Assembly (NCBI RefSeq): GCF_046119375.1 | Contig: NW_027362763.1 | Location: 807,984,001 to 808,048,000 of the forward strand | DNA: 64,000 nucleotides | Direction of reading: 5' to 3' | Origin: Phyllobates terribilis | Lineage: Eukaryota | In this document: positions 3,458 to 48,985 of the stretch, piece by piece | Position numbering within the stretch: position 1 is the first letter of the stretch | Layout: each line of letters opens with the position of its first letter | Made by a program: the position numbers and the translations under genes | Notes under the pieces: model-generated | Seen by the model: the letters and a program-made list of their open reading frames with translations, nothing else | The model's database searches: none | What the model was told of the DNA's origin: nothing

Positions 3458-5800
3458 CTATAGGAACGGCCTGTAAGACAGCTGCTCATTGAGGCCGTAG
3501 GGAGCCGTTGTCCGCATTCTGAAGATCCACTTCGTCTCTCTTTGCAGGATCAGTTTGTCCCAGTCGCCCCCTCTTGGTGGGGCCGTAACTTTGTCAATTC
3601 CCATGTAGCGTATTATATCCCTACTGTTCGGATGTACGTTATTCACGTGTTTTGCCAGGGGGGTATCTCTTTTCAGGGCGATATCTCTTTGGTGCTCTCC
3701 TACTCTTCTTCTCAATTCTCTCTTTGTCTTCCCTATATATTCCATTCCGCAGACACATTTAGCCATATAGATAATTCCCTTCGATCTACAATTAATGAAA
3801 TGTTTGACAACAAATGTTTTTCCGGTGACATTACTTATGAAGTCTTTCCCTTGCGTAATAACTTTACATGATACGCATCCACTACATCTAAAACAGCCAG
3901 TTATGGAGCTTTTCAGCTTTTTGTTCCCCATATGGCCCATATAGTGACTGTGGACCAATCTGTCCCTAAGGGATCTGCCCTTTTTATATGTAATCATAGG
4001 TCTTGAGTCGACCATGTCACCAATATCCTCGTCCATTAATAGAATCGGCCAATGTTTTTGTAATATCCTACGGACTGTATACGACTGATTAGTGAAAGTA
4101 GTGATGAGTCTGCAGAAGGTGTTGTCCTTATCCACATTTGGGGATGGGTGTAAAAAGGAGGAGCGGTCCCTGGCCAGAGTCACCCCATAGGCCTCAGCTA
4201 TCACCTTCTTTGGGTAACCCCTCTCATGAAATCTCTGACAGAGATCGGTGGCCTGGGCTCTAAAAGTGGCATCGTCCGAGCAGTTCCTCCGGACCCTCAT
4301 GAATTGCCCCTTTGGTATGCCCCTCTTAAGTGGGGCTGGATGGTTACTTTCCCACCTGAGGAGAGAATTCGAGGCAGTTTTTTTCCTATATGTACTGGTC
4401 TCTATCTCCCCATCCTTTCCTATCCGTATCAAGATGTCCAGAAAGGGCAACTCCTGGGGGCCAAACTCAAAAGTGAAGTGTAGGTTAAGGTCATTATGAT
4501 TAAGCCTTTCTACAAGGTTTCCAAAGGATGTTTTGTCCCCATTCCACAGAACTAGGACGTCGTCGATATATCGAACCCATAGCAAAATATTTTCACCACC
4601 TTCAATAGGGATGTCTCCAAAAACCACGGTTTCCTCCCACCAACCCAGGTATAAATTGGCATACGATGGGGCGCATGGGCTCCCCATCGCAGTACCCCTG
4701 AGCTGGTGGAAGTACTTCCCACCGAAGAGAAATACATTTTTTGTCAGGCAAAACTGAAGGGCCTTCATCACAAAGTGATTGTGTCGCTCAAATTGTTTGC
4801 CTCTCCCCATAAGGAAAAAACGTTTCGCCTCCAGACCCCTATCATGGGGAATTGAGGAGTATAATGACTCCACATCAATGCTAGCCAAAGTCACGTCTTT
4901 GTCAACTGTCATACCTTCTAGTTTTCGAAGCAGGTCATTGGTGTCACCGACAAATGAGTTCAAGCTTACAACAAAGGGTTTAAGTACCTTCTCCAAATAT
5001 ATTCCCAAATTTTGCGTTAGGTTGTTAATTCCCGATATTATGGGTCGTCCTTTCAGCGGATTCAGGCCCTTATGTACCTTTGGGAGACTATAGAAGGTAG
5101 ACATAACTGGATGGATTGGACAGATAAAGTCTCTCTCCTGTTTATTTAGGGTACCATCCCTCATGGCCTCATTTGCCAGTTCCTCCAACTCTTGGGAGAA
5201 TCTTTTCGTGGGATCCGCCTTTAATGTGCTATAACACTCCTTAACGTTGAGTATAGCACTGCACATCAGGTAGTACTCACTGGTATCCATGATCACCACG
5301 TTACCCCCTTTATCTGAAGGTTTTATGGTGATATGTTCATCATTTTCTAGTGACCTCAATGCCTGCATCTCGCAACGAGTGAAATTGTGTCTAAAGCGTC
5401 TGGAATCATTTTCCAGGTCCCTCAAATCTTTAGTCACCATGTTCAAAAATACATCAATAGGGCTCAAATCACTCTGTGGAGGTGGCATTTTGGTACTTTT
5501 CAGTTTCAAATTGGTGAATGGGCCATTCCCCTCAAGGTTAGGATCCACATCACCGAGGTGAAAAAGGGTTCTAATATCAGGTAGAAGTTCTTCACGAACC
5601 CCCAGATCCGCGCATGCCTGTTTATCAATCTTAATATAGTGCTTGCGCCACTTCAACTTGCGCACAAATAAATTTACGTCTTTTATGATCTCAAAAGAAT
5701 TGTAGTCTGTTGTCGGTACAAAAGTCAGACCCCTATTCAAAACCTCCAGTTCTACAGAGGTGAGGCTTCTCGATGATAAGTTTATGATTTGGGGATTCAT
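3458..5800 (-). CDS. PLE2 reverse transcriptase + Cys-rich linker + GIY-YIG endonuclease (780 aa, intact)
   Basis: Motifs IKPSDKGGNVV, GRPIIS, DVESLYSSI, GTAMGSPCAPSYANL, RYIDD, CFRCSGCVSC, GIIY..C.CGMEYIG..R...EH, GLNE. Confidence 0.96.
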   Translation of the reverse strand: MNPQIINLSSRSLTSVELEVLNRGLTFVPTTDYNSFEIIKDVNLFVRKLKWRKHYIKIDKQACADLGVREELLPDIRTLFHLGDVDPNLEGNGPFTNLKLKSTKMPPPQSDLSPIDVFLNMVTKDLRDLENDSRRFRHNFTRCEMQALRSLENDEHITIKPSDKGGNVVIMDTSEYYLMCSAILNVKECYSTLKADPTKRFSQELEELANEAMRDGTLNKQERDFICPIHPVMSTFYSLPKVHKGLNPLKGRPIISGINNLTQNLGIYLEKVLKPFVVSLNSFVGDTNDLLRKLEGMTVDKDVTLASIDVESLYSSIPHDRGLEAKRFFLMGRGKQFERHNHFVMKALQFCLTKNVFLFGGKYFHQLRGTAMGSPCAPSYANLYLGWWEETVVFGDIPIEGGENILLWVRYIDDVLVLWNGDKTSFGNLVERLNHNDLNLHFTFEFGPQELPFLDILIRIGKDGEIETSTYRKKTASNSLLRWESNHPAPLKRGIPKGQFMRVRRNCSDDATFRAQATDLCQRFHERGYPKKVIAEAYGVTLARDRSSFLHPSPNVDKDNTFCRLITTFTNQSYTVRRILQKHWPILLMDEDIGDMVDSRPMITYKKGRSLRDRLVHSHYMGHMGNKKLKSSITGCFRCSGCVSCKVITQGKDFISNVTGKTFVVKHFINCRSKGIIYMAKCVCGMEYIGKTKRELRRRVGEHQRDIALKRDTPLAKHVNNVHPNSRDIIRYMGIDKVTAPPRGGDWDKLILQRETKWIFRMRTTAPYGLNEQLSYRPFL

Positions 5801-6567
5801 AATGTCGGTGTGGGGGTACTCAGATTGAGGCGATTGCGTAATGGATAACCCTCCTCTAAAAAAAGCCCAGAGGGGGATCTCCTATTACTAATGTTTCTGC
5901 CACGAATCCTACCGCCACCTCTTCCCCTCTGTCTACCACAATATGGTTTGGGTCTGACCTCTGACTCTGAAAAGTCAGTGTCAGTGGACGAAATATCTGT
6001 ATCCGGGTATCTTGGGCTCCTGTTAGAGAGGAAATTATAAGCCTTATTTTCCTTGAACTCTTGTAGATCTTTAATGAAAAATTTGTGCTTCCGTTCCTTC
6101 AGATGATATTGAAATCTTTCTATTGTGTTCTGAAGTAACGTTTCCTTAGCGTTAAATTCAGGTTCCAAGGAAAATTTTTTTGTTAATTCCACTTGTGTTC
6201 TCAATGATTCATTCAAAGCGGCTAATGTAATCCTCTCCTCATCTAGGAGCAATTTCATGAATCGTAAAGAACTCGCGGTCGCCTCTTTTTCCCAGAGGCC
6301 CAATAGGGTCTGACTCCTGTACCGAAAAGAAGGGAACAGAGTGATCCGGAGGTTCCTTGGGACGATGCCTGCCCTTAAGTAATTCTCAAGTGTTTGTACC
6401 TCCCACCAAGATGTGATCTGCTGTTTGTAGATTTTTGTTAATTCTCTAAAAGCGGCCGAAAAAGTGGGGGTGTATTTTTTTTGGGCAAAAGTGCGCTCAG
6501 AAAAGACCTCTTTGGCCTCAGTAGCCCACTGGCTGGTGTCTATTCCCACTGACAGAAAACCAGCCAT
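5797..6567 (-). CDS. PLE2 upstream ORF (256 aa; helical N-terminal domain, RG-rich basic tail)
   Basis: Lies between the pseudo-LTR and the RT ORF. Contains a WWE..L..Y....IVPR.LR segment and an RGRGGGRIRGR tail. Its TGA overlaps the RT ORF ATG (ATGA). Confidence 0.8.
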   Translation of the reverse strand: MAGFLSVGIDTSQWATEAKEVFSERTFAQKKYTPTFSAAFRELTKIYKQQITSWWEVQTLENYLRAGIVPRNLRITLFPSFRYRSQTLLGLWEKEATASSLRFMKLLLDEERITLAALNESLRTQVELTKKFSLEPEFNAKETLLQNTIERFQYHLKERKHKFFIKDLQEFKENKAYNFLSNRSPRYPDTDISSTDTDFSESEVRPKPYCGRQRGRGGGRIRGRNISNRRSPSGLFLEEGYPLRNRLNLSTPTPTL

Positions 6568-6585
6568 ACCACTTATATTTCAAGT

Positions 6586-7524: not shown

Positions 7525-8714
7525 GTCCCCTGGCTCCCTACATACATTCCTCTAACTCTCCAACTCTATGAGGTGCGGTCCCTCTCCATTCTTCCCTTAT
7601 GTTCCCTCATATCCCTTCATACCCCTCTCCTTCCTATTTTTATATATTTTTTTGTTTCTGTTTTTGTCATTTTTCTTTCATCACTATTTTGGGTTTAAAG
7701 TGCGCTACTGAGGTTGGGCCGTAGCTTCACTGTGCGATTCTGGACCTATGAAGCATTTCCAGCTTTCTAACCACTGGGGTAAAATGAACGCGTGTTTTAT
7801 ATATACCGCGGTACATATGGTATGTTGCCAGGATAAGTGCCAGTTATTATATGTTCTGGACACTTTCCATGGCTTGGGATATTCATGGATGAGACTCCTT
7901 TTATGGTGACATCCAAAGCAGGATGCCGGCTGGTGATCCTGCGTGTCCCCTAGCTATCGCTCCGTTATGTGCGATTTTTCCTTGTCTATGACGCGCATAC
8001 CGGAAGTGACGTCTGCGTGTCACGGCCGGCATCTGCGTTCCACATACCGGATGTCAGGTGACCGGAACCGGAAGTGACACGATTATGAACAGAGCGCGAT
8101 TAGGATTCAAAAGAGGATCTAATAGAGCATGAAGTAGCGCTGTCTGGTGAATGAGCTGCGCGACTTTGGGCAGCGTGCATACCGCATGTCCTCTTTTTTC
8201 TTTCCCCTGATGAATAGCTAAGGCTAAGAAACGCGTCGGGAGCGGCATCTGGGGAGCGGTATTTGGTGGGTGACCTTATGAATTTTGGTTCACCACCATC
8301 ATATGGAGCCCCCTCTGAGATCCGAGAGCATGGACAGTCATCAAAATTGGTGAGGATGTTCCATTTCTATATAGCAGAGTTAAATGGTCACCATTGATGG
8401 GGCGAGTGTTTTCATGTTCCCATATCTCAGGGTGAATGCCTTCATGTTCCCACATATTGGGGTACAATAAGTTGATATAGTGTACTGTGGGCTTCATTAT
8501 CTTTTTTCCTATTTGCCATTCCTTCCTTGGTTTGTGTTAGAGATGCAATATGCTTATATGACATATATCTATATCTCTGGAAGTAACAATATATGGAAGT
8601 TCTCTTGGTTATTATATACCACAGGCAGTCAAACTGTGTGTTTTTAGGTCCTTGCATTTGGCATATATTTTATCTAATGGTATTAAAAGTTAAGTTTTAA
8701 GTTTCTATAGAACT
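7525..8714. repeat. PLE2 inverted pseudo-LTR (reverse complement of ~2123-3320)
   Basis: 7868-8714 pairs with 6653-7499, giving 847-bp inverted arms around a ~368-bp spacer. Confidence 0.95.
8202..8242 (+). ncRNA. Minimal type I hammerhead ribozyme, PLE2 copy 3 (in the inverted repeat)
   Basis: TTCCC CTGATGA ATAGCTAAGGCTAA GAAA CGCG TC GGGAG; predicted cleavage after C8237. Confidence 0.75.
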
Positions 8715-8728
8715 GCGCCCAAGAAAGA

Positions 8729-9564
8729 CCAGCAAGTGCCAGGACCGTATCTTAAAACTGTTTCAGCTGCGGGATCGGACTACCAGCAGTGCCGAGCTTG
8801 CTCAGGAATGGCAGCAGGCTGGTGTGAGTGCTTCAGCACGCACTGTGAGGCGGAGACTCTTTGAGCAAGGGCTGGTTTCTAGGAGGGCAGCAAAGAAGCC
8901 ACTTCTCTCCAGAAAAAACATCAGGGACCGACTGATATTCTGCAAAAGGTACAGGGAGTGGACTGCTGAGGACTGGGGCAAAGTCATTTTCTCTGATGAA
9001 TCCCCTTTTCGATTGTTTGGGACATCTGGAAAACAGCTTATTCGGAGAAGAGGTGAGCGCTACCACCAGTCTTGTCTCATGCCAACTGTAAAGCATCCTG
9101 AAACCATTCATGTGTGGGGTTGCTTCTCAGCCAAGGGAATCGGCTCACTCACAGTCTTGCCTAAAAGCACAGCCATGAATAAAGAATGGTACCAGAATGT
9201 CCTCCAAGAGCAACTTCTCCCAACCGTCCAAGAGCAGTTTGGCGCCCAACAATGCCTTTTCCAGCATGATGGACCACCTTGCCATAAAGCAAAGGTGATA
9301 ACTAAATGGCTCATGGAACAAAACATAGAGATTTTGTGTCCATGGCCTGGAAACTCCCCAGATCTTAATCCCATTGAGAACTTGTGGTCAATCATCAAGA
9401 GACGGGTGGACAAACAAAAACCAACAAATTCTGGCAAAATGCAAGCATTGATTATGCAAGAATGGACTGCTATCAGTCAGGATTTGGTCCAAAAGTTGAT
9501 TGAGAGCAAGTCAGGGAGAATTACAGAGGTCTTGAAAAAGAAGGGGCAACACTGCAAATATTGA
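8729..9564 (+). pseudogene. Tc1 transposase C-terminal part (DD35E)
   Basis: FSDES, HVWGCFS, QHDG, WPGNSPDLNPIENLW. Joins 1878-2055 in frame to give ~337 aa. Confidence 0.95.
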
Positions 9565-9743
9565 CTTGCTGCATTAACTCATTCTAACTGTCAATATAAC
9601 CTATTGGTACTCATAATATGATTGCAATTATATTTCTGTATGTGATATAAACATCAGACAAACACTAATAAAAACCAGAGGCCAGCAGATCATGTGAAAA
9701 TATAATTTTGGTGTCATTCTCAAAACTTTTGACCATGACTGTA

Positions 9744-10975
9744 CAGATAGGATTGTACTCTACAAACGATATATTGATGATCTGTTTGTCGTGTGGAAAG
9801 GGGGGTTTAGAGAGGCAGAAACGCTAGTAAAAGAACTCAATAGTAATAACTGGGGAATTTCTTTTGTGGCTAACATTGAAAAGGAAAGAGCCATTTTCCT
9901 AGATTTGGAAATTACACATGAAAATAAAAAAATTATTGCCAAAACACATTTAAAAAAAGTGGATGTTAATGGGTATCTTGATTATCAAAGTGCCCATTAC
10001 CTCAAATGGAAGAACAATATTCCATTCAGTCAATTTTTTCGTATTAGAAAAAATAATACTAAAAAATCTGATTATGTTCTGCAATCTCAAATACTAAAGA
10101 AAATGTTTTCAGAAAAAAAGTATCCGAAGCATTTAATAAATGAGGCATATCAGATAAATCTGAAAAAAACTCAAGATGATTGTCTATTAATGAAAACACA
10201 GGAAAATGAAGCTAGAGCAAATAGGAACGACAAATCAGTAATTAATGCACATTCAGGTAAAAATACGATGGAGGGTAACAAAAAATGGCATCAAAATTGT
10301 ATTACTTCATTTAATAAAGATAATGTATGGATTAGAGAGGTTTTACAAAGACATTGGCATATTTTATTACAGGACCCCCTCCTACGTGATACTCTGCCGA
10401 ATAGACCAGGTATCACATTTAGAAGAGGAAAAACGCTGAGAAATATCATCGCACCAAGTCGCTTGAAAAGACAATACACAAAAGAACAGACAAATATTTT
10501 CAAAAACAATATTATAGGATATGTTCCGAGTAAACAAAATGGCACCTTTAAGTGTTTACAAAAAAAATGCCAGTGTTGTCAATCCATTACACATGGGCAC
10601 CAATTTATAAAATCAAATAGTACAGGTGAGATCTTTCCTATTCAAAGTCATCTTTCATGTACCAGCAGCTACGTTATTTATGTGATCACGTGTGAATGTG
10701 GGCTTCAGTATGTCGGTCGGACAACACAGATGGTCAGATCACGCTTGAACGCACACAGACATAATGCCAAGTTCGGACTCCTAACGCATAGTCTATCAAG
10801 ACATCTCTTAGCAACTCATGATAAGAAATTTGTAGTGAAAATAACACCAGTGGAGGAGATTCCTTCAGATAAACCTGATAGAATCCATCAATTGAATAGG
10901 AAAGAGGCCTTCTGGATATATAGGCTACGCTGTCTATATCCAGACAGCCCCAATGATAAAATCAAAAACGTGTGA
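9744..10975 (+). pseudogene. PLE1 RT C-terminus, thumb, Cys linker and GIY-YIG endonuclease
   Basis: RYIDDLFVVW, IFLDLEI, CLQKKCQCC, VIYVITCECGLQYVGRT..R...H, E.FWIYRL. Open to the stop at 10975. Confidence 0.92.
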
Positions 10976-30799: not shown

Positions 30800-31762
30800 A
30801 TGGAAGAGTCCAGGAGCCATTTGGTGAGCTGCATATCCTGCTACATGTTCACAGACTTGCCAGTGGAAAAGCCAAACTTCACATGCCAGAAATGCAAGCT
30901 TGTGTCCCTGTTGGAGGAAAAGTTGCGAAATCTAGAAGAGAGGTTAACTACCTTGAAAATCATTAAGGAAGGTGAAGAGTTCTTAGACAGAGCAGAATTA
31001 TCTCTTCATGATTCAGAAAGAGAAGAAATTCGAACGGCACCTGACGAAACAGAGGAATGGAAGCATGTGACCCACAGAAGCAGGAGGATCGAGAGGCAGT
31101 CAGCACCCATACTGCTCAGGAACCAGTACCAGGCTCTCACGCAGGAGAACCTTGAAGAAATACAGCAAGATAAGACTTTGCCAGCAATGAATAACCTTGT
31201 AAGTCCTCAGAATCCTCCTGGATGGAGAGAGAAGAATGTTGTGAAGAAAAAACGAAGAGTGGTGGTCATGGGGGATTCCCTGTTAAGAGGAACAGAGGCC
31301 GCTATCTGCAGACCAGACATAACCTCAAGAGAAATGTGCTGTCTTCCTGGAGCAAAAATTAAAGATGTGTCTGACAGGATATCAAGACTCTTCAGACCTA
31401 CAGATCACTACCCATTCCTGCTAATACATGTGGGGACAAATGACACCGCAAGAAAGGACCTGGAAACCATCTGCAGTGACTTTGAAGACTTAGGCAAGAA
31501 AGTGAAAGAATTGGGAGCGCAGGTGGTCTTCTCATCCATCCTCCCAGTGGATGACCATGGAACAATGAGGTGGAATAAGATTCTACAGGTGAACAACTGG
31601 CTACGTCGATGGTGCCGTCAACAAGGATTTGGATTTCTGGATCACGGGATGAATTACCTATACGATGGACTACTTGCTAGAGATGGGGTGCACCTTACGA
31701 AGACTGGAAAACATGTATTTGGAAGTCGCCTTGCTACACTCATCAGGAGAGCTTTAAACTAG
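30800..31762 (+). CDS. CR1 ORF1p (zinc finger/leucine zipper + SGNH esterase-like domain), 320 aa
   Basis: CISC..CQKC followed by a heptad L repeat; MGDSLLRG, HVGTND, DGVHL. Confidence 0.93.
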   Translation: MEESRSHLVSCISCYMFTDLPVEKPNFTCQKCKLVSLLEEKLRNLEERLTTLKIIKEGEEFLDRAELSLHDSEREEIRTAPDETEEWKHVTHRSRRIERQSAPILLRNQYQALTQENLEEIQQDKTLPAMNNLVSPQNPPGWREKNVVKKKRRVVVMGDSLLRGTEAAICRPDITSREMCCLPGAKIKDVSDRISRLFRPTDHYPFLLIHVGTNDTARKDLETICSDFEDLGKKVKELGAQVVFSSILPVDDHGTMRWNKILQVNNWLRRWCRQQGFGFLDHGMNYLYDGLLARDGVHLTKTGKHVFGSRLATLIRRALN

Positions 31763-31881
31763 AACAATGTGGGAAGGGAAGCAAAAGGTCAGAAAAAGCC
31801 ATACAGCTGACAAATACTATTGAGATCTCTGCTACTGGAAGTGGAAAGAAAGAACAAAGACAAAAAAATCTAAATAAAAAT

Positions 31882-34671
31882 ATGGGAGGAAGAGAAACCA
31901 ATCACAAACTAAAATGTTTCTATACAAATGCACAAAGCATGGGCAACAAACAAGGAGAATTGGAACTACTAATGCAGGAAAAGAAATATGATGTCATTGG
32001 AATCACTGAAACTTGGTGGGACGATACACATGATTGGAATAAAAGGCTAAAAGGATACAACTTATTTGCAAGAAACAGAATTGATAAACGAGGAGGAGGT
32101 GTCGCATTGTATGTTAGAAAAGCGTATATCTGCACAGAGATTGAAGCTTCAGAGACTGGGAGTTCTGTGGAAACTGTTTGGGTAAGAATACAAGGAGAGA
32201 ACAACGGAAAGGACACCATTGTAGGCATTTACTACAGGCCACCTGGGCAAGCTGAAGATATGGATGAACTCTTTATGTATCAAATGACCAAGTTCTCCAA
32301 AAAATATGACGTAGTGGTCATGGGAGATTTCAACTATCCAGACATTTGTTGGGAATCTCTCTCAAGTAAAACTAACAGGTCAAGCAAATTCTTATCCTCT
32401 CTTGCTGACAACTTTATCTTCCAAAAGGTAGGGGAGAAAACAAGGGGATCTGCTACTTTGGATCTAATCCTTATAAACAGGGAGGAAATGGTTGAGGAGG
32501 TAAAGGTGGCTGGGACCCTAGGAGGCAGCGATCATGCTATTATAGAATTTTGGATAACTAGAGGAGGAAGACATGTGAAGACTCAAACTTCAAGGTTAGA
32601 TTTTAGAAAGGCAGATTTTAAGAGACTCAGAAAGAGAATAGGAGGGATCCAATGGCTGGATGTCCTTAAGGACAAAAATGTCCAGGAAGGATGGGAAATT
32701 TTTAAAAATGAGATTCTCAAAGCACAATCGTTAACAATCCCGAAAAGTAGGAAGAATGGGAAGCATTTAAGGAAACCAGGATGGATGAACACAGAACTTA
32801 AACACATGCTAAAAAGAAAGAAAGAAATGTTTATTAAATGGAAAGAGGGAGGCATATCTAAAGAAGATTATAATGCAGTCTGCAGATCCTGTAGGGCACG
32901 TATCAGGTTAGCTAAAGCTGACAATGAATTAAGGCTTGCAAGAGATGTCAAAAGCAATAAAAAAGGATTTTGGGGGTATGTCAAAAGTAAAAGAAAAGTC
33001 AAAGATGCTATAGGATTTTTACAGGATGAAAATGGAGAAATGGTAAGAGAGGATGTTGAGAAGGCCGAACTTTTTAATTCCTATTTTGCATCTGTTTTCT
33101 CTCAGAAAGAAAATGTAACATCAACTGATTTTCACTGTCCTTTTAAAGGAATAGAAGAATCCAAGTTATCTGTAAACAGAAAGATTGTGAGGGAATATTT
33201 AGCTAACATAAATGAGTTCAAGTCTCCAGGTCCAGATGAATTACACCCCAGAGTACTGAAGGAGATCGTAGAAGAAATTTTAGAACCACTCTCCATAATC
33301 TTTGAAAATTCTTGGAGAACAGGAGAAGTCCCAGAAGACTGGAGAAGAGCAAATGTTGTTCCTATCTTCAAAAAGGGGAAGAAGGTGGACCCAGGGAACT
33401 ATAGGCCGGTGAGTCTGACTTCTATACCAGGAAAGATCTTTGAACAAATTATTAAACATCATGTATGTAAGTACCTGGATAAGAATGAAGTGATTAACCA
33501 GAGTCAGCATGGGTTTGTAACTAACAAGTCATGTCAGACTAACTTAATTTCCTTCTATGACAGAATCACTGACTGGGTGGATCAGGGAAATGCTGTAGAT
33601 ATAGTATATCTTGACTTCAGCAAAGCATTTGACAAAGTATCTCACACCATCATTATTGAAAAAATGACCAAGTATGCAATGGACCAGGCAACTGTTAGGT
33701 GGATTCATAACTGGCTTAGTGATCGGACTCAAAGGGTGGTTGTAAATGGCTTCACATCCAGCTGGATGAATGTCTCAAGTGGGATACCACAGGGCTCTGT
33801 CCTAGGACCTGTATTGTTCAACATCTTCATCAATGATTTAGATGAAGGAATTGAGGGTAAACTGATTAAATTTGCTGATGACACAAAGCTAGGAGGGATA
33901 GCTAATACTAGAGAAGAGAGAGAGAGGATTCAAAAAGACCTAAATAAACTGGAGCAGTGGGCAGCAACCAACAGAATGGTTTTTAACAGGGAAAAATGCA
34001 AAGTACTACATCTGGGCAATAAAAATGAAAAAAGCATATACAGAATGGGAGGAATAGAGCTAAGCAACAGTACATGTGAAAAAGACTTAGGTATACTAAT
34101 AGATCATAGACTGAACATGAGTCAACAGTGTGATGCAGCAACAAAAAAGGCAAATACAATTCTGGGATGTATTAACAGAAGCATACAGTCTAGATCACGT
34201 GAAGTCATTATCGGTCTTTACTCCTCTTTGGTCAGACCTCATCTGGAATACTGTGTACAGTTTTGGGCACCACATTTTAAAAAAGACATAGACAAACTGG
34301 AAGAAGTTCAGAGAAGAGCGACCAGAATGGTGACTGGTCTGCAAACCATGTCCTATGAGGAACGGTTGCAGGATTTGGGAATGTTTAGCTTGCAAAAAAG
34401 AAGACTGAGAGGAGACTTAATAGCTGTCTACAAATATGTCAAGGGCTGTCACATTGTAGAAGGATCATCTTTATTCTCATTTGCACAGGGAAAGACTAGA
34501 AGCAACGGGATGAAACTAAATGGGAGGAGACACAGATTAGATATTAGAAAAAACTTTTTGACAGTTAGGGTGATTAATGAGTGGAACAGGCTGCCACGAG
34601 AGGTGGTGAGTTCCCCTTCAATGGACGTCTTCAAACAGAGGCTGGACAGACATCTGTCTGAGATGATTTAG
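31882..34671 (+). CDS. CR1 ORF2p (AP endonuclease + reverse transcriptase), 929 aa, intact
   Basis: YTNAQS, GITETWW, YYRPP, GDFNYP, GSDH; YRPVSLTS, YLDFSKAFD, GIPQGSVLGP, FADDTKL. Confidence 0.97.
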   Translation: MGGRETNHKLKCFYTNAQSMGNKQGELELLMQEKKYDVIGITETWWDDTHDWNKRLKGYNLFARNRIDKRGGGVALYVRKAYICTEIEASETGSSVETVWVRIQGENNGKDTIVGIYYRPPGQAEDMDELFMYQMTKFSKKYDVVVMGDFNYPDICWESLSSKTNRSSKFLSSLADNFIFQKVGEKTRGSATLDLILINREEMVEEVKVAGTLGGSDHAIIEFWITRGGRHVKTQTSRLDFRKADFKRLRKRIGGIQWLDVLKDKNVQEGWEIFKNEILKAQSLTIPKSRKNGKHLRKPGWMNTELKHMLKRKKEMFIKWKEGGISKEDYNAVCRSCRARIRLAKADNELRLARDVKSNKKGFWGYVKSKRKVKDAIGFLQDENGEMVREDVEKAELFNSYFASVFSQKENVTSTDFHCPFKGIEESKLSVNRKIVREYLANINEFKSPGPDELHPRVLKEIVEEILEPLSIIFENSWRTGEVPEDWRRANVVPIFKKGKKVDPGNYRPVSLTSIPGKIFEQIIKHHVCKYLDKNEVINQSQHGFVTNKSCQTNLISFYDRITDWVDQGNAVDIVYLDFSKAFDKVSHTIIIEKMTKYAMDQATVRWIHNWLSDRTQRVVVNGFTSSWMNVSSGIPQGSVLGPVLFNIFINDLDEGIEGKLIKFADDTKLGGIANTREERERIQKDLNKLEQWAATNRMVFNREKCKVLHLGNKNEKSIYRMGGIELSNSTCEKDLGILIDHRLNMSQQCDAATKKANTILGCINRSIQSRSREVIIGLYSSLVRPHLEYCVQFWAPHFKKDIDKLEEVQRRATRMVTGLQTMSYEERLQDLGMFSLQKRRLRGDLIAVYKYVKGCHIVEGSSLFSFAQGKTRSNGMKLNGRRHRLDIRKNFLTVRVINEWNRLPREVVSSPSMDVFKQRLDRHLSEMI

Positions 34672-37803: not shown

Positions 37804-38418
37804 CTAGGTGTGCCTGACAGACATTTTCATCCCAAAGAGTGCCAAAATTTCTGTTTTCAATTTTTCATATTCTTTGGCGTCCTGTAAGGCTAAATCATAG
37901 TAGGCTTTTTGTGGCTTCCTCGTTAAGTATGGCACCAAGACTTCTGCCCACTGCTCTGGCAGGAATTTCTCCCTATCGTTGAACCTTTCAAAAATGGTTA
38001 GAAAGGTCTCTATGTCATCACCCGGTGTCATTTTCTGCAAGGCTCTCCTCGCTGCCTTCTGGACAGAGAAATCATTAGCTGACATTGGAGTTGGAGCAGC
38101 TGCCATGCCACGATCTGCCTTTTTGAGCAAATCAATCTGCTGCTTCTGTTGTCGACTCTGTTGCTGGTACTGTTGGAGCAGCTGCTGGTGCTGTTGCTGC
38201 TGCAGTTTTTGTTTAAGCAGCTTACTTGTCTCCTGTTGTGCCAGCTGTTGCTGTTTCAGCTGCTGCTGTTGGAGCTTCTGCTTCTTTTGTTGCTGCTGGA
38301 GCTGCTGCTGCTCCCGGTGCTGCTGCAGCTGTTGCTGGCTTTGGACCAGGTGCTTGATCAGTCTCTCCAATTTGTCTGACTGCTGTTCCATCCTAACAGC
38401 CGCCTTCACCCAGGACAT
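37804..38418 (-). pseudogene. G1 gag N-terminus (poly-Q stretch + SCAN-like capsid region)
   Basis: MSWVKAA..., Q-rich segment, LQKMTPGDDIETFLTIFER...WAEVLVPYL..KPQKAYYDL. Confidence 0.85.
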
Positions 38419-38465
38419 GCAGTCTGTCCACAGCTGTCACACTTGCTTCCCGTGGATCTTGCTCG

Positions 38466-39639: not shown

Positions 39640-40976
39640 GCTGGAGGTTTGGGCACCTTCAGACACCAAGCAGGGAATTCTGGAGAGGGCATCAGCATTA
39701 GCATGTAACATCCCGGGTCTATGCTCCACGTGAAAATTAAAGTCTTGGAGACCAAAGAACCATTTGGTTACTCGGGCATACTTACCCTTCTTTCCCCTCA
39801 ACCATCTCAAATGGGCATGTTCTGACACCAATTTAAACTTTCGTCCAAGTAGATAGTATCTTAGTAAGCCCATGGCCCATTTTATGGCTAAGCATTCTTT
39901 CTCCACAATGGCATGATTTTTCTCACAGGATGAGAGCTTTTGGCTCATATACAGGATGTGATGCTCTTCCCCATTTATCTCCTGCGACAGCACAGCTCCT
40001 AGGCTTCTGAGGAGTCTGTCTGGATCACAAACTCTTTAGTAAAGTCTGGTGCGACCAGGACCGTCTGCTTAGAGAGCGCCAGATTCAGCTGTTGGAATGC
40101 CATCTCAGTTTCAACCGTCCCTTTCACCATCGTTGATTTTGTGCCTTTCAGAGGGTCCTTCAGTGGTGCGTCATTCATGGCAAAATTTGGGTAATATCCC
40201 ACGATTTCAAGAAACACTCTCACCTGCTTCTTGGAGAGCGGTTGCTGCCAGTTCTGAATTGCCTCGATCTTATTGACCTGTGGCTTAATTTTGCCTCTCC
40301 CGACAACATAGCCTAAGTACTTGGCCTCCTTCTTTCCAGTGGCACATTTTCTCAGATTTATCATAAATCCTGCCTTCCTTATAGCATCCAGAATCGCCTG
40401 TACCTTTGGCAAATGACTAGCCCAGTCTGGGCTAAAGATGACAATGTCATCAAGGTAGGCTGTGGCATACTTCGTATGTGGGCTGAGGATCCAATCCACG
40501 GCCCTCTGGAAGGTGGCTGGTGTCCCCTGCAATCCGAAAGGCATTCGGGTGTACTGGAAGCACCCATCAGGTGTTGAGAAACTGTTTTCTCCTTGGCCCT
40601 CTGGCACGTGGGGATCTGCCAGTAGCCCTTCGTCAAGTCGAGGGTGGTAATATATCTCGCAGGTCCAAGCCTCTCGATGAGTTCATCGATGTGGGGCATC
40701 AGGTATGCGTCACAGTTGGATACCTCATTCAGCCTGCAGTAGTCATTACAAAATCTCCACTCCCTGTCGAGCTTTGGCATGAGAACGATGGGACTCTACC
40801 ATCCGCTCTTTGATTTCTCTATCACACCGAAGTCCAGCATCCTCTTCACCTTGGCTGAGATTACCTCTCGGTGGGCTTCAGGGATCCTATAGGGTTTCAG
40901 GTTTACCCTAACATGTGCTTCCGTCAGCACGTCATGCTCGACCACCTGCGTACGCCCCGACAACTCCAAAAACAGG
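39640..40976 (-). pseudogene. G2 RT and RNase H
   Basis: WRFCNDY, TLDLTKGYWQI, MPFGLQG, YLDDIVIFS, FVIQTD, EKECLAIKW, HANADALSR; frameshifted. Confidence 0.9.
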
Positions 40977-41308
40977 TGTCACGCCAGGTGTGAATGCAAC
41001 ACAGAGTGTCATGCCAGGTATGAGTGCAACACAGAGAGGAAAGGGAAAGGGAGCCCAGACACTAGGGAAAGGGGGAAGAGGTGACCTCCTAATCTGGACT
41101 AGCATCACCCTGTCTCCCCCTATCGTCCCTATACAGCCTCCGCAGCTGTTGCTGATCACGTGCCTTGCCCTACTATGCCTGGCGTAAAGCTATAGCTGGG
41201 GTTGGAAGGTGATGAGTACTAGTCAACCTCCGCTAGCACTCTAAAGACAAAAGGGGAAGACAACACAGGGGAATAACAACTCAGCTCCAGAAGAACTCCA
41301 ACAGGACA

Positions 41309-42339
41309 TGTAAGGTGCCCCAGCGAGGTAGTCGTGGGAGAGCTGTAGCCCCCTCTCGCTCTGGCACCCTACAGACAATACGTGTCCTCCCTCTGATGTG
41401 TGGCTGTGTATGTGGGGCTCTCCACTTACTTCAAACAATCTGATCGCAGCTGTCTCCAGGCATTTCTCTTCTGGGACAAGGGCAGCAATAATTTCAGAGG
41501 ACACGAGGTTCTTAACCAGAACTTGAACTTTACTTGGGGAAGAGGAATATGTACAATATTTACAGGCAGATATAATGGATAAGGCCCGACAGGTTATCAT
41601 CTCTCTCACAGGCGCTGGCAACATCTTCAGCCCTGGTTCCCTCTTTGAGTGAAGCATCTCTGTGACTCTATCTCTAGCCCAAGAGACTCTTCTGTAATAC
41701 TAACAGTGATCTGGATACAATCTCTCCCCCACGTCTTAGCCTGGAGTCCTATTTATCTTCTTCTGCTTCCTGCAGACTAGAAGTGCCCCGGGTCCTCAAC
41801 ACTTCCTTTGAGTTTCTACGGCTGGCAAACAGGACTCTTGCTCTTGCGTAGGGAGACTTTTGCACTATTGATCCCACTGTCTGAGGGTATGGAGCTCCCG
41901 TCTACCCTAGCAGCCACATATATTCAGGCTGCCCGTAATGGTCACTGTCCTATCTCTAACTGAAGAATCACTTCCTGATTCTGGAAACTAAACAGAGATT
42001 TTCCTAATGTGCCCACCCTCAGTGAGCTGTCATCACACAGCATTAACTCATCACTGTCTGTAACACTGCTAGCAGACTCAACTTGACATCTGCACCCAGG
42101 ACAGTGGCATCTTGTGGCTGTTTACAGGTACTGCAGCCCACAAGGAATTATGCCAGGAACAAGCTCTATATCATTCAAGGCTTGATCAGGGCACTAAGTT
42201 CCCCCCTACTCTACTGACTGGACCACTACAGCTAACCCCTTAGCTTGGTCTACCAACAGTTCAGAGAGGTCGACTTCAGGAACACTTCCTTTAACTATCT
42301 CAGTGCCAAGGGAAGGCTACGCCCTTCCCCACTATTACA
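41309..42339 (-). repeat. 3' LTR of the CSD element (1031 bp)
   Basis: Matches 44921-45952. Confidence 0.95.
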
Positions 42340-43076
42340 TTCCCCGACACTTTAATGTTGTTCGTCCCCGACCACACTAAACAATCAACACAGATCAGCA
42401 GCTATGACATTATATCATATTACTAAATTTGCTAAAACATTTTAGTAAACGACTGGTCCTGAAAAATGTCTTCTTGAATGGGAGACCGGCCCTTCTCGGT
42501 TAAGGGCCCCAGAACAGTAGCTCAGGACAGTCCATTATCAACTTTTCAAAACTTTCTCAGGAGTACCGGTCCTTCTTGGTAAGGATCCTGGAAACACAGT
42601 GTCCAAGTCCATATTTTTAAGACAGGCCAACACCTCAATAGCCCCCAATCTCCTTCAAGGGCTGCATTCTGAGGCACACAGTCACAGGTAACACCCCGTG
42701 AGTCTCTTTCTTCTTGGCCCTAGCGGGGGTCACCGGTTCTGTCCGCTAGGCTGCAAGTCTCTTAGATTTGGAGGATATCCATCCTCAAGGTGTGCCTCAG
42801 CGTTTTAAATTCCAGCAGAAAAAGGCGCAACAAGCGCAACAAAAATAAAAATAAAAAGTTAAAACAAAAAAGAGCAGCTCTCCTGGGCACACAACTTTAG
42901 TGCTGCTTAAGGCCTTTCTGGCCTGGGAGGTAGGGGAACAGTCCTCCATTTTTCTCTACAATCTAATTCAACATGGGGCACTCCGCCCCCATTGGGAAAC
43001 AGTCTCAGAATCAGGACCTCAGCTGGTGGGTCCTAGTAGAAGAAAAGGTGAAAGGTCAACGGACCTTTTAGCCAGC

Positions 43077-44819
43077 TCACTTCTTCCGGGCCTCCTTCCG
43101 TTCCTTCATGAAGGCGGCCCATGCTGCAGAGGAAGGTGGCTTCTTCCACCTCCAAGGCTGATCGGGGTACTTAGTAGGCCCAGGATCCTCGTCCGAGGAT
43201 GTAGCACTGCCACAGCCAACCTGGGTAGGGACGTAGCTGGTTACTGTAAAGCTGTGGACGACATTACTGGTGCCAGCTTGAATTTCCCCGACAGCTCTCT
43301 CAGTCCCTCCTGGGTACTGTGGCGCCGACTCCTCACTAGTGAAATCAGCTTTCTTGCCACTTGTGAGATCTTCATCTTCCTCGCTCACAATCTCCCCCCA
43401 CTGCCGCCTCCTAGGCTCCTCTGCTGGCGGAGCACTGGCCTTAGGTGGGGGCAGAAAGCCTTTAGGGGCTTCCTTAGCCCAGCACTGCTTAGCCTCCCTC
43501 TTGGCCCTCCTTCTGAAGACCTCTTCGTCCTTTTCCAGGACATCTTTCCATTCATACGGTCGGGTGAGCGCAGCCGCGTACCACCCTCCAGAACACTCGC
43601 ACTTAACGAAGTGCACTATGTCCCCCACACGCAGATTGTGAAGTTGATCAGGCAGATAATCTTGCTTAATTACCTCGCAAGTAACGAACACCTCGTGTCC
43701 GGTCCACTCTTCCTCCAGAAATCCTTACCCCTCACAGATGTGGAACTCAAGGACTCGTCCCCGAGTCTGGGAGTCCTCCACCGACTCTCTCCGCGCCGCG
43801 TTGGACCCTTCCAGCCAGCCTCTGAGGAAAGTGTCGGTCCATCGCCGCTGCTCTCGTGGCGTCATCGGGGGGTTATCGGTAGTCCACCTCAGACTCCCGA
43901 GCTCGGCGTAACGTTTCGCTGAAGGGATGTCGATGGCCTCCACAGCCAGCTGCCAGAAACTCTCTTGCGGGGCCCTCTTCCCGGGAGGCCTCGCCTCCGC
44001 CTCCGCACCACCCCCTTCAGGCCTAGGGGCCCCTGTCTCAGTGGAAGCTGTCGCGGCAGGCGCCGCAGGCGAAACCGGCCGCTGGGGTATAGGCTGCTCA
44101 CCTCCGTCAGGCTCCGCTGCAGCTGTTGCTCCGGCCCCACCAGAATGTTCTCCATCCTCAGCCGAGGGGGACGGGTCTTCCGGCATCCGGCTCCAGCACC
44201 ACATGCAGAACTCATGGATAAGCAGGCCCAGCTCCGGATCAGGCCTAGTGGACCACTGGACAGCCACTGGGGGTAAAAACTCATGGGCGGCACCCGCGAG
44301 CGAGCGACTCTCGCTTGCAGCCCCTGGGGTACTCAGATCTAGCATCTCTTCCTTAGCGCGCATTCCGGACAGGTCATCCGATCCTCTGGTCGCCATTCTC
44401 TTGGAGCGTCCACCGCAGCACCTCCTTCCTCTCGTGTGCTGGACAGAAAATGGCGCTGGTCGAATACCAGTGACGCCCGTCCTGTGCGTCCAACTCCTCC
44501 TCTTCCTGGGCTGGCTTTCTGATGCGACCGCCGCGTCACACGTCACTCTCGGCAGCTCCGACTTCAGCCGCTCCCCTTCTCTCTGCGCGCTGATACTCAC
44601 GGGGCCGGACTTCACTTTACACCGCGCCCTCTTCCTCACTGGACGTCCCATCCTGGGACGCATCTTCACTGCTGGGCCCATCCTTCTTTGGGCCGGAACT
44701 CGTAGGGGCTGGACATCTTTTCGCGCTCTCCGGCGCCGTCCACTCCCATGATAGGCAGTTCTTCTCCCAGACTTTACCGCCATTGTCACCATCTTGGAAT
44801 CCATGCTTCGGGCCGCCAT
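43077..44819 (-). pseudogene. ~580-codon ORF with a cold-shock domain (43560-43766) and one in-frame TAA (43725-27)
   Basis: ORFs 43725-45269 and 43077-43691 are the same frame. Across the stop: TRGRVLEFHICEG*GFLEEEWTGHEVFVTCEVIKQDYLPDQLHNLRVGDIVHFVKCECSGGWYAAALTR, which aligns by eye with CspA/YB-1 (RNP1 G-x-GF, RNP2 VFV). Start codon uncertain. Confidence 0.78.
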
Positions 44820-44900
44820 CTTGGGCCGAATGCCTTCCAACACTTTCTCCTCAGTGTTCTGCGTCGGCTCTTCCCTGCTTTCTTCATGCGAGGAGCTCGC

Positions 44901-44918
44901 ATCCTGCCGACTACGCCA
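44901..44918 (-). promoter_or_regulatory. Primer-binding site complementary to the tRNA-Ser 3' end
   Basis: Minus strand TGGCGTAGTCGGCAGGAT, 2 nt from the LTR end; 18/18 match to vertebrate tRNA-Ser(AGA/TGA)+CCA as I recall it. Confidence 0.88.
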
Positions 44919-44920
44919 AA

Positions 44921-45952
44921 TGTAAGGTGCCCCAGCGAGGTAGTCGTGGGTGAGCAGTAGCCCCCTCTCGCTCTGGCACCCTACAGACAATACGTGTCCT
45001 CCCTCTGATGTGTGGCTGTGTATGTGGGGCTCTCCACTTACTTCAAACGATCCGATCGCAGCTGTCTCCAGGCATTTCTCTTCTGGGACCAGGGCAGCAA
45101 TAAATTCAGAGGACACGAGGTTCTTAACCAGAACTTGAACTTTACTTGGGGAAGAGGAATATGTACAATATTTACAGGCAGATATAATGGATAAGGCCCG
45201 ACAGGTTATCATCTCTCTCACAGGCGCTGGCAACATCTTCAGCCCTGGTTCCCTCTTTGAGTGAAGCATCTCTGTGACTCTATCTCTAGCCCAAGAGACT
45301 CTTCTGTAATACTAACCGTGATCTGGATCCAATATCTCCCCCATGTCTTAGCCTGGAGTCCTATTTATCTTCTTCTGCTTCCTGCAGACTAGAAGTGCCC
45401 CGAGTCCTCAACACTTCCTTTGAGTTTCTCCAGCCGGCTAACAGGACTCTTGCTCTTGCGTAGGGAGACTTTTGCACTATTGATCCCACTGTCTGAGGGT
45501 ATGGAGCTCCCGTCTACCCTAGCAGCCACATATATTCAGGCTGCCCGTAATGGTCACTGTCCTATCTCTAACTGAAGAATCACTTCCTGATTCTGGAAAC
45601 TAAACAGAGATTTTCCTAATGTGCCCACCCTCAGTGAGCTGTCATCACACAGCATTAACTCATCACTGTCTGTAACACTGCTAGCAGACTCAACTTGACA
45701 TCTGCACCCAGGACAGTGGCATCTTGTGGCTGTTTACAGGTACTGCAGCCCACAAGGAATTATGCCAGGAACAAGCTCTATATCACTCAAGGCTTGATCA
45801 GGGCACTAAGTTCCCCCTCTACTCTACTGACTGGACCACTACAGCTAACCCCTTAGCTTGGTCTACCAACAGTTCAGAGAGGTCGACTTCAGGAACACTT
45901 CCTTTAACTATCTCAGTGCCAAGGGAAGGCTACGCCCTTCCCCACTATTACA
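44921..45952 (-). repeat. 5' LTR of the CSD element (1032 bp)
   Basis: Directly precedes the PBS on the minus strand. Confidence 0.95.
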
Positions 45953-46203
45953 GACACATGGCCTCAAGACTCCAGAGAGGACGTGATGCTGCTTCAGACA
46001 AATTCCAAGTAGGAATGAGTATAACCGGCGACGTCCACCTAGACACACCAGGTATATATACACCCAGACTAAAGGGAGGTAGTCGCTGGGTCCTAAACAC
46101 AGCCTCCTATTTAGGCAGCTGTCTGCATTGCCAAACTTGGAGATCTCCTGCAAACCACTGCAGGGCGACTGTCTGTCAGCTCTGACACACCCATGACAAC
46201 AGG

Positions 46204-48985
46204 TCACGATTCCGTTGCAGCAGCTCTCTACATTGTTGCTTCTGTGCCGGCGATAGAGTCTCTGCTATCATGACGTCCTCGACTTTGGCTTTTGGACTGG
46301 CTCCCAAACAAGAAGCCCCCAATGTTTCCCGATCTCGCCTTGGCTTGAGCAAGTTCATAGTACACTTGGTGCGGCTTTCTTCGGCCAGGCTGGTGACCTT
46401 TGTAGTTCACTTTGCTGAGTTTCTGCACCACCTTATACTGGCCTCGCCACTTAGCCAGGAACTTGCTCTCGATGGTGGGAATAAGCACCAGGACGTGATC
46501 CCCACGCTGGAACTGTCTCAGCCTCACTGACCAGTTATAGACCCTTTTCTGGGCCTTTTGTGCCTGGAGGACATTTGCCTTGATAGGCATCACTTTCTCC
46601 ATTCTCTCCTGCATCTGGGTGACATGTTCTTTGACGCTCTGGTGGGGAGTAACCTCGGCTTCCCAAGTTTCCTTGGCAATATCCAGGAGCCCTCACGGAT
46701 ATCGTCCATGCAGTAGCTCAAACGGGGAGAAACCCATAGAGGCTTGTGGGGCCTCTCTTACCCGAGAAAAGCAGTAACGGTAGTAGGTAGTCCTAGTCAT
46801 GACCATCCTTCTCTACGACCTTTTTGAGCATTGCTTTTAAGGTTTTATTAAAGCGCTCTACCAAGCCGTCTGTCTGCGGATGGTAAACGGAGGTTCGCAG
46901 CTGGGTAATCTGAAGGACTTTACACAGCTCCTTTATTACCTTGCTCATGAACGGAGTTCCTTGGTCCGTTAGTATCTCCTTCGGCAGTCCGGTCCTGGCA
47001 AATATATGGACAACTTCCCAGCCTGTGCTCCTACTTGATGAGTTTCTCATTGGTTCCGCTTCTGTCTTCCGAGTCGCATAGTCCATGACAACCAGGATAT
47101 ATTGGTGGCCCCAGGCTGTTTTGACTAAGGGCCCCAGTAGGTCCATGGCAATCCTCTCAAAGGGGATTTCTATCACAGGTAGGGGAATTAAAGGACTATG
47201 GAAGTGGGAAGAGGAGGCAGTTATCTGGCAGCTGGGGCAGGACCTTCAATAGTTCAGGATCTCAACCCTTGCCAATAAAACCTCCTCAATATCCTCTTCT
47301 GAGTCTTCTCGACCCCCAGGTGTCCCCCCAGAACATTTGAATGGGTCATTTCTAATATCCTCTGTCAGTATGGCCCTGGAACTAATAGCTGCTCCACTAT
47401 CTCATCACCCCTTGGTTTGGTCACCTGATACAGTAACTCCCCCTGAACTGCTAAGTGTGGGTACCTGGTGTCTGCCCCCAGCTCTTGAACAACCCCATTG
47501 CAGACAGTAACATTGTCCCATGCTCCCTTCAAGGACAAGTCCCGAACTTGAGCAGACCCAAAGTTCTCTCCTGTCACCTCTTACTCATTGAGGTCGGCCT
47601 CCTCGGTCACAGTCTCATCCTCGTCGCCGGCAAGGACACACAATGGGAACTCATTCCCTTTAGATGTTGACTGGGGTATTTCCCTAGTTACCTGGATTTT
47701 GTCCACGTGACTCAGTCCGGTTCCTTTCCCCCACAAGTCCCAGTACAACGGGAAATCGCCCCCCAATATGACGGGATATATCAGGTCCTTAACCACCATG
47801 ACCTCGTGGGATTGGGGACCACAGTCTATTCCCACTGTCACTCTGGCCACAGGGTAGTCCTTGGCGCCCCCATGTATGCAGCGTACGCCCACAGTCTTGG
47901 CAGAGATCAGTTGGTGGGGAAGGTTGGCACTGATTAGGGTCACCAGACTCCCTGAATCCAACAGTCCAAGCATTATCACCCCATTAACGGAAACGTACAT
48001 GCCTGCAGCCCCTCACCAGGTTAATAATCCATGCTACAGGCCGGATGGGCATAATAGGAACAATGCCATCCTAAGCTGCAGTCTATTGGTTCAGGGGACA
48101 TGTGACACCGGGCGGCTATGTGTCCAGGATTATGACATCGCCAGCATACCACATCCCTCACAGCAGTCTTTGCAGGGCCCTCAGTGGGATTGAGACGACC
48201 CCTGTTTGTGACTCTAGACCCCTTACGTGGTGAGCCCACCCCTCTTTGGGTACTTCAGTATAGGGAATTGACTATGTCCAGTTTCCCAAGAGATTTTTCA
48301 ACTACTTGGTACCTCTCTACCAAGCCCACAAGGTCATCTGGACTAGATGTAACAAGTCAAACATCTACGAGCGAGGGGATTTGTCGCCAGCATACGCCCA
48401 CTGGTGTGCTCTGACAGACATAGTCACTTCCGAGCATGCTAGTATCTCGGTCTTTAACTTGGCATACTCCTGTGCATCCTGTAGGGCCAGGCCATAGTAG
48501 GCCTTTTGGGGTTCACTCGTTAAATATGGGGCCAAATATGGGGCCAGCACCTCCGCCAACTGCTCCGGCGGCAGTTTTTCCTATTCTGCTACCCTTTCGA
48601 ACACAGTCAGAAATGCCTCAACATCATCCCCTGGGGTCATCTTTTGCAACCCATGCCTTACCGTCTTCCGGACATATGAGACATCACCTGGAGTTGGGGG
48701 AGGGGAAGCCTCTCTGCTGCGAACTTCCCCTGCTAGAAGTTCCATCTGCCTTTGTTGTTGCTGAATCTCCAGCATCAGGAGTTTATTGGTCTCTTGCTGT
48801 TCTTGCTGTCTCTACAACTGTTGCTCTCGTTGCTGCTGTAGAAACTCTTGGTGCTGCTGTTGTAGGCTCTGTTGGCTCGGCAAGTGCTGCTAATGTTGCT
48901 GTTGTTGGCTCTGCAGCAGGTGCTTCAGGAGCTCTTCCATGCTGCCGGACACCTCTGGCTTGCTGGCAGCCTTTACCCAGGACAT
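46204..48985 (-). pseudogene. G2 gag (SCAN-like, Q-rich), protease and integrase
   Basis: KMTPGDDVEAFLTVFERVAE, EPQKAYYGL, LLDSGSLVTL, QLLVPGPY, IPFERIAMDL, KFLAKWRGQY; several frameshifts. Confidence 0.9.

Follow-up and report, generated by a model that had tools for sequence, protein, structure and literature searches.

Introduction

Cold-shock domains (CSDs) have been captured by mobile elements before: 46 endogenous retroviruses (ERVs) of birds carry them, acquired in multiple events and at varying positions, according to the accessible part of that report (PMC12287698). Long terminal repeat (LTR) elements with a single open reading frame (ORF) and no pol gene are known from Xenopus, where the accessible text describes 1a11, xretpos(L), and lambda-olt 2-1 (PMC4585706), and the zebrafish families BHIKHARI-1 and -2 are presented, in the portion available, as LTR families encoding a functional protein (PMC13269885). 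Here, we analyzed a 4.6-kb LTR element at positions 41309–45952 (minus strand) of a 64,000-nucleotide stretch of the Phyllobates terribilis genome (NCBI RefSeq assembly GCF_046119375.1, contig NW_027362763.1, positions 807,984,001 to 808,048,000; hereafter the window). The element is a dead member of a non-autonomous LTR retrotransposon family of Gypsy type; its one gene codes for a protein that is largely disordered and contains a Y-box-like CSD.

The bird and frog elements are alike in being LTR retroelements with an acquired CSD of the PF00313 type. However, the bird elements are ERV-A/B and ERV-G retroviruses classed by their reverse transcriptase (RT), whereas the frog elements are passengers of Gypsy type that have neither gag nor pol; the retroviral RT that marks CSD-carrying ERVs is missing from the window element. 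Two rows of the bird supplement list near-canonical CSDs at E values of 1e-24 to 1e-25 (accessible material of PMC12287698). In contrast, the frog CSD protein is the sole product of its element, is strongly diverged, falls on one branch, and shows measured purifying selection. The Xenopus elements resemble the window family in being amphibian, lacking pol, having an ORF (1a11 and xretpos), and numbering tens to hundreds of copies. Yet 1a11 is Gag-like, xretpos is suggested to use tRNA-Arg, and the word "cold" is absent from the accessible part of the article (PMC4585706), a separation from the frog CSD elements by description and not by sequence. The BHIKHARI families are ERV-related and Gag-encoding in the available portion of their report (PMC13269885), whereas the frog CSD elements have no Gag homology.

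Gypsy passengers with a selected CSD protein as their only gene are not described in the literature searched, outside which lay Repbase, Dfam, and most subscription journals. The soybean SNARE elements reportedly form an autonomous/non-autonomous partnership with LTR swapping; like them, the frog passenger has helper cis-signals and mosaic LTR and internal regions, but unlike them it keeps a selected, host-derived RNA-binding-type gene. Judged from sequence, the lineage appears to be an undescribed form of CSD capture, while capture by bird ERVs and pol-less frog LTR elements were already known. A preliminary description of the locus knew of no formal account of such a family, which holds for the frog lineage in the literature searched but not for CSD capture as such, since the bird cases are published (PMC12287698, accessible part).

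Results

The interior of the element contains a single ORF of 580 codons (43077–44819, minus strand), running from a likely start ATG at 44819 in strong Kozak context to a TGA at 43077–43079 and broken by one premature TAA in the RNP1 motif (43725–43727, minus strand). The stop is private to the window copy among those read, as all 35 readable sister copies of the 40 fetched have a sense codon there. The frame of about 580 codons given in the preliminary description needs only the small correction that it stays open for about 130 further codons upstream, across the primer-binding site (PBS) into the 5' LTR. A coding role for this LTR part is not supported (dN/dS 0.73–0.75, no clear constraint). 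Repeated AAGATGG motifs lie at the likely start codon (window 44795–44822, minus strand) in families A, C, and E (also loci L102 and L103), and resemble a YY1 site.

The CSD lies at 43557–43763 (minus strand), with RNP1 and RNP2 and a five-stranded OB barrel supported by profile, alignment, and predicted fold. Pfam found no CSD in the two half-frames of the window copy because the stop splits the domain. An intact natural copy matched PF00313 at E 1.4e-5 and 25.3 bits, slightly below the 27-bit cut-off, which family F and 12 of 17 element-type relatives exceed. The intact copy aligns to human YB-1 over 76 residues without a gap (E 1.1e-5; best bacterial Csp 0.027), with a loop of the length seen in YBX proteins. 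A profile of 17 sequences matched solved structures of YBX (5e-16), bacterial Csp (4e-10), Lin28 (8e-4), and CSDE1 (0.08), in that order. AlphaFold2 predicted a five-stranded barrel after two helices (pLDDT 84.7), which Foldseek matched to CspA, YBX1, and YBX2 (E 7e-7 to 6e-6, probability 1.0). On these comparisons the domain is a CSD, nearest to those of Y-box proteins, as the preliminary description had proposed in preference to a bacterial Csp.

The face that would contact RNA differs from that of YB-1, whose nucleic-acid contacts include W65, F74, F85, and H87 in the accessible part of the structural work (PMC7498358). Among 33 element-type CSDs, the F74 equivalent in RNP1 is retained in 28 and the F85 equivalent in RNP2 is aromatic in 30, while the W65 and H87 equivalents are each retained in one. 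Y-box-like binding therefore cannot be assumed. The E121 position is aromatic in 32 of the 33, and the two residues after the H87 position, past RNP2, are mostly Arg. Judging from CSD geometry, the new aromatic may stand in for W65 on the binding face. The element CSDs thus share fold, loop length, and the F74/F85 positions with YBX1/YBX2 (PDB 5yts, 6ktc, 7f3j) but differ in the W65/H87 equivalents (each lost in 32 of 33), in the aromatic at E121, and in the basic residues after RNP2; their protein lacks any match to Y-box tails and is encoded by mobile elements. Identity to a fish Y-box CSD is 26–39%, so the domain is not the near-invariant CSD of the Y-box family, and the searches outside it gave no match to the family's C-terminal tail. 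The sole CSD of the 33 that keeps the RNP2 histidine, at locus L254 (G000:C4:791520011–791520214), is possibly an early branch.

Outside the CSD, the protein is of low complexity, differs between families, and has no match in Pfam, PDB, or helper Gag; profile comparison gave no Gag homology (probability 0.1%). Capsid, zinc knuckle, RT, and integrase were likewise without match in the window element and the intact copy (Pfam, PDB, profile comparison), in line with the earlier reading that gag/pol motifs are absent. That reading had also likened the flanks to the charged tails of Y-box proteins, for which the Pfam and PDB searches returned no tail match. The N-terminal region (44397–44819, minus strand) is rich in Arg and Lys (13–21 per 50 residues) and is also retained in a CSD-less sister subfamily, with a net dN/dS of 0.25. 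A conserved hydrophobic box (44175–44276, minus strand), without match in Pfam or PDB, and a Trp-rich C-terminal motif (43134–43169, minus strand) are shared with the divergent family C. The AlphaFold2 model of the full-length protein was uninformative (pLDDT 33.5) and was left out of the fold search. An ESM Atlas match (best score 0.86) was kept as a lead only. The initial protein-database search returned a sole match, to a Phyllobates gene model into which a fragment with 94% identity is fused.

The window element belongs to a large family. A DNA search of the 10.57-Gb genome gave 833 candidates, the top 40 at 94–100% identity, and exact LTR-PBS junctions number at least 534. No sense gag lies behind this junction in any of 40 samples, and 27 of the 40 have the CSD. 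Forty copies were fetched out of the 150 best protein matches: both LTRs are full length in 26 (a perfect 4-bp target-site duplication, TSD, flanks 22 of these), the LTR pairs of complete copies differ by 0.6–3.0%, and at least 10 of the 40 have an intact frame by a strict motif test. The multicopy, non-autonomous family of the preliminary description is thereby borne out, although its scale was underestimated, the window family being one of several in an old lineage. Two side features concern copy arrangement. Tandem elements with a common LTR (2–3 units, period ~3.6 kb) occur at locus L034 and G000:C1:582554090–582561370, and near-identical copies with open frames of 740–760 codons cluster at G000:C10:89–95 Mb, C162, C283, C55, C103, and C138, where they were probably amplified as segmental duplications. 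Loci L051 and L052 have flanks in common.

Selection on the CSD was estimated from pooled pairs of copies. The dN/dS of the domain was 0.11 within subfamily A and 0.07 between subfamilies A and B (net 0.05), against 1.4–3.7 in shifted-frame controls (A, A versus B, and family F). For the whole ORF, the values were 0.44 within A and 0.25 between A and B, compared with 0.85–1.2 in shifted frames and 0.53 and 0.34 in the in-register antisense frame, which shares third positions with the sense frame. The 3' UTR counterpart was 0.98 within A, and a C-terminal block gave 0.08 between A and B. The two subfamilies are mosaics, since A and B are separated by a synonymous distance of only 0.07 in the LTR part but 1.46 in the CSD. 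Among 44 independent copies, nearly every frame-breaking site is private (15 of 16 stops, 15 of 15 frameshifts), whereas in-frame indels are often shared (8 of 18), so the copies that moved had open frames. Left out of the copy comparisons were two segmental duplicates and, of 47 copies, one without PBS. Taken at the sequence level, the CSD is under strong purifying selection in element lineages. None of the four outcomes that the preliminary description had set against itself was found: the CSD and its OB fold were recovered, no cryptic Gag appeared, the locus is not single-copy, and dN/dS between copies is far below 1.

At least six CSD families are present in the genome. Family C has unrelated 1.03-kb LTRs, a different primer site, and LTR pairs 5–12% apart. 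Families D, E, G, and H are further types; an LTR context is shown for E but not for H, is indicated by PBS and LTR matches for G, and is partial for D. Family F is the most abundant: all six copies fetched in full (~4.9–5.2 kb) have LTRs 99.0–99.9% identical and an ORF ending in the CSD, whose dN/dS is 0.14. Exact matches to a 23-nt pattern taken from the F CSD number at least 15,727 (control 0), a total that duplicates from unplaced contigs may inflate. The pattern matches 15 of 22 F/G loci and no other fetched locus, and since it misses some F/G loci the count is a lower bound. The CSD lineage thus comprises more than 16,000 copies in the genome, ~80 Mb if full length. Family F and the window family have only the CSD in common. 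Many open frames of 710–816 codons occur at family F loci L144–L149 (G000:C1, 0.9–3.5 Mb), and a short repeat in 2–3 copies follows the F ORF (3' UTR of locus L148).

Related CSD proteins occur in Ranitomeya, Anomaloglossus, Bufo, Engystomops, and Hyla; one Anomaloglossus protein reads through the window family's primer site, and among the relatives an element context was seen only there. Element-type CSDs of different families are only 30–50% identical. In a CSD tree with 45 rows, a branch (support 91/87) separates the 33 element-type rows from the rest, and element-type and Y-box rows together stand against CSDE1 (100/98). Three rows were left out of the tree, one bearing an insert and two with multiple CSDs. 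The lineage would go back to a single, old acquisition of a Y-box-type CSD whose RNA-binding face was then remodelled. As the genera are all hyloid frogs, the capture probably dates back tens of millions of years, barring horizontal spread. Side finds at loci L244–L249 and L264 are CSDE1 retrocopies that lack introns and lie in tandem on C1, together with a Y-box retrocopy that has decayed.

The cis-signals of the element are complete and agree with the preliminary description. The 5' LTR (44921–45952, 1032 bp) and 3' LTR (41309–42339, 1031 bp), both on the minus strand and bounded by TG..CA, differ by a K2P distance of 0.016 (1.6%) and are flanked by the 4-bp TSD GACA (41305–41308 and 45953–45956). 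The 18-nt PBS (44901–44918, minus strand), 2 nt from the 5' LTR, occurs once in the window and in none of 100 shuffles, and is complementary at 18 of 18 bases to the 3' end, with CCA added, of a tRNA gene in the genome that ARAGORN assigns to Ser(TGA). A short polypurine tract, GGGGAA (42340–42345, minus strand), precedes the 3' LTR and is present in 24 of 26 complete copies, the remaining two differing by one base.

These signals connect the window family to candidate helpers, the kind of autonomous partner that the preliminary description had proposed to look for. A looser junction pattern (TTACA-PBS) has 2,037 matches; of the first 30, five are the window family and 24 of the other 25 have gag or pol. 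These gag/pol loci represent two Gypsy families with PNMA-like gag and 4-bp TSDs, one of them showing a CCHC knuckle and the order protease, RT, RNase H, integrase. A run of 26–27 nt (last 5 nt of the LTR, spacer, and PBS) is identical between the window element and both families. The primer site itself has 69,769 exact genomic matches; of the first 30, which all lie in the terminal 4 Mb of a single contig, 14 are followed by gag and 14 belong to family F. No CSD was found inside the 17 autonomous elements examined. One apparent exception, locus L155, was rejected as a CSD element interrupted by another retroelement. An ATG at the PBS end is the gag start in a candidate helper and in the window element gives only a short out-of-frame ORF.

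One helper family also carries, inside its LTR, a motif 84–88% identical to a 50-nt stem-loop in the 3' UTR of the window element (42714–42763, minus strand; palindromic ACCGGT in the loop). It is the least variable 50-nt window of the 3' UTR across the 44 copies (0.042 versus 0.044–0.216), yet its fold z of -1.8 is not significant, Rfam gave no match, and it was not found in families C, E, or F. One possibility is that the stem-loop signals dimerisation or packaging, in the manner of retroviral kissing loops; alternatively, it may be a relic of an earlier LTR or LTR swap, because the same helper shows LTR-like similarity to a family D locus. Family F has in common with a gag-pol Gypsy ~500 nt that span U5/LTR end, PBS, and leader (identity up to 88%), as well as an identical purine tract; by this similarity, its helper link is much stronger than that of the window family.

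Three of the 40 junction copies belong to the sister subfamily, in which ~900 nt of unrelated sequence replaces the CSD part. It has the LTR, PBS, basic N-terminus, and stem-loop of the window family; all eight copies checked keep LTR, PBS, and 3' stem-loop and have no CSD. The ~900-nt segment has no Pfam match and no source among the loci fetched (pN/pS 0.75). It lies in frame after the basic N-terminus, and a 378-codon frame is open in three of eight copies (loci L166, L179, L199, and L274–L281).

The element is inserted in a decayed Gypsy whose integrase remnant (46228–46692, minus strand) lies upstream of its RT remnant (39999–40682, minus strand), the order of Gmr1-like elements; a gag-like remnant lies at 37804–38436. 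Other element ORFs, assigned by inspection only, lie at 3458–6579 (minus strand), 9698–10975, 31681–34671, and 8701–9564 (all plus strand), and include Penelope-like RT/GIY-YIG elements, a Tc1-like transposase, and an open 996-codon CR1-like ORF2 with ORF1.

Discussion

We lean slightly toward a mechanism in which the passenger likely borrows capsid, RT, and integrase from a tRNA-Ser-primed Gypsy and its protein likely binds the element's own RNA, aiding stability and entry into helper particles. Helper Gag and Pol would package and copy the passenger RNA, while the protein, made from that RNA, would serve it in preference to other RNAs, as a chaperone or masking factor. Binding through the CSD and basic region could improve stability or packaging and give the passenger an advantage in competition over helper Gag. 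The advantage would not be absolute and could be supplied in trans or lost, and the CSD cassette may repeatedly have been re-paired by recombination with the LTR and leader of different helper families. The CSD of YB-1 unwinds RNA stem-loops, and YB-1 packages dormant mRNA, according to the accessible part of that article (PMC8464072); a role on the element's own RNA is therefore plausible. Four contig sets presumed to be RNA, from one study, covered the element but were not used because identity was mostly below 99% and a silent-stretch control was lacking.

The wider history is held more tentatively, at a little under even confidence: an ancestral frog retroelement would have caught a Y-box CSD once and remodelled its RNA face, giving rise to an undescribed satellite lineage of more than 16,000 copies, with an accessory protein for access to Gypsy particles and helper swaps by recombination. 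Several observations weigh against the mechanism favoured above. The spread of the CSD-less sister subfamily (at least 40 copies, dispersed) means that a CSD in cis is not strictly needed. No autonomous element with the LTR body of the window family was found among 40 sampled junctions, and its helper link amounts to 26–27 nt plus the 50-nt motif, with differing polypurine tracts. The loss of the W65 and H87 equivalents tells against a conserved mode of RNA contact. The dN/dS values come from non-independent pairs and carry no confidence intervals, the 44 copies were chosen by CSD-region similarity and are biased toward intact ones, and the CSD tree has 72 columns, support that is not starred, and no Lin28 or bacterial rows.

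An alternative that we regard as unlikely is a counter-defence factor acting in trans, which would block small-RNA silencing or sequestration in RNP granules, or compete with germ-line Y-box proteins, so that the whole helper-passenger group gains. The spread of the CSD-less subfamily fits such a factor, as do the very high abundance of both Ser-primed helpers and passengers, seen in the count of exact PBS matches, and the ability of YB-1 to counteract stress-granule assembly (PMC8464072, accessible part). However, insertions hardly ever inherit frame breaks from one another, a pattern not expected from a benefit that acts purely in trans.

Somewhat more doubtful is a nuclear regulator modelled on the Rev- or Tat-like accessory proteins of complex retroviruses, in which the Arg-rich part would direct import, while binding of the CSD to the 3' stem-loop or to single-stranded LTR DNA would promote export or transcription. 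The constraint on the Arg-rich N-terminus and the conserved stem-loop in common with a helper LTR are consistent with it, and the YB-1 CSD binds single-stranded DNA (PMC7498358, accessible part). Against it, the stem-loop was not found in families C, E, and F, and because family F and the window family share only the CSD, the flanks are not a common regulatory module.

It is very improbable that the ORF is a disguised Gag or that the CSD replaces the nucleocapsid in a particle made by the element itself, the latter being one role raised in the preliminary description. Pol-less single-ORF LTR elements with Gag-like proteins do exist in Xenopus (1a11; PMC4585706, accessible part), and the full-length model is too poor to exclude such a fold. 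Yet no capsid matched in Pfam, PDB, or profiles, and the regions outside the CSD are of low complexity and vary between families. A nucleocapsid substitute is made unlikely by the CCHC knuckle that candidate helpers carry themselves and by transposition of the CSD-less subfamily. Least credible of all is a view of the CSD as passive cargo derived from a retrocopied Y-box mRNA, or as a gene that the host has domesticated: although Y-box and CSDE1 retrocopies are present and some frog homologues are annotated as host genes, the domain is only 26–39% identical to a vertebrate Y-box CSD yet shows dN/dS of 0.05–0.16 on element lineages, the frame breaks are private, and copies decay after insertion with at least 10 of 40 still intact.

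Non-autonomous LTR elements are commonly regarded as parasites that encode nothing or only Gag. The frog lineage has kept a single RNA-binding-type gene of host origin, and selection on it is strong in families with highly divergent CSDs; this implies an undescribed accessory function in retrotransposition. The general question of competition among passengers for helper particles becomes testable in this system. The lineage is also relevant to frog genome size, given the thousands of young family F copies, and to annotation, as related toad proteins are named "Y-box-binding protein 2-A-like". The remodelled CSD is, in addition, a natural experiment on RNA recognition by Y-box proteins.

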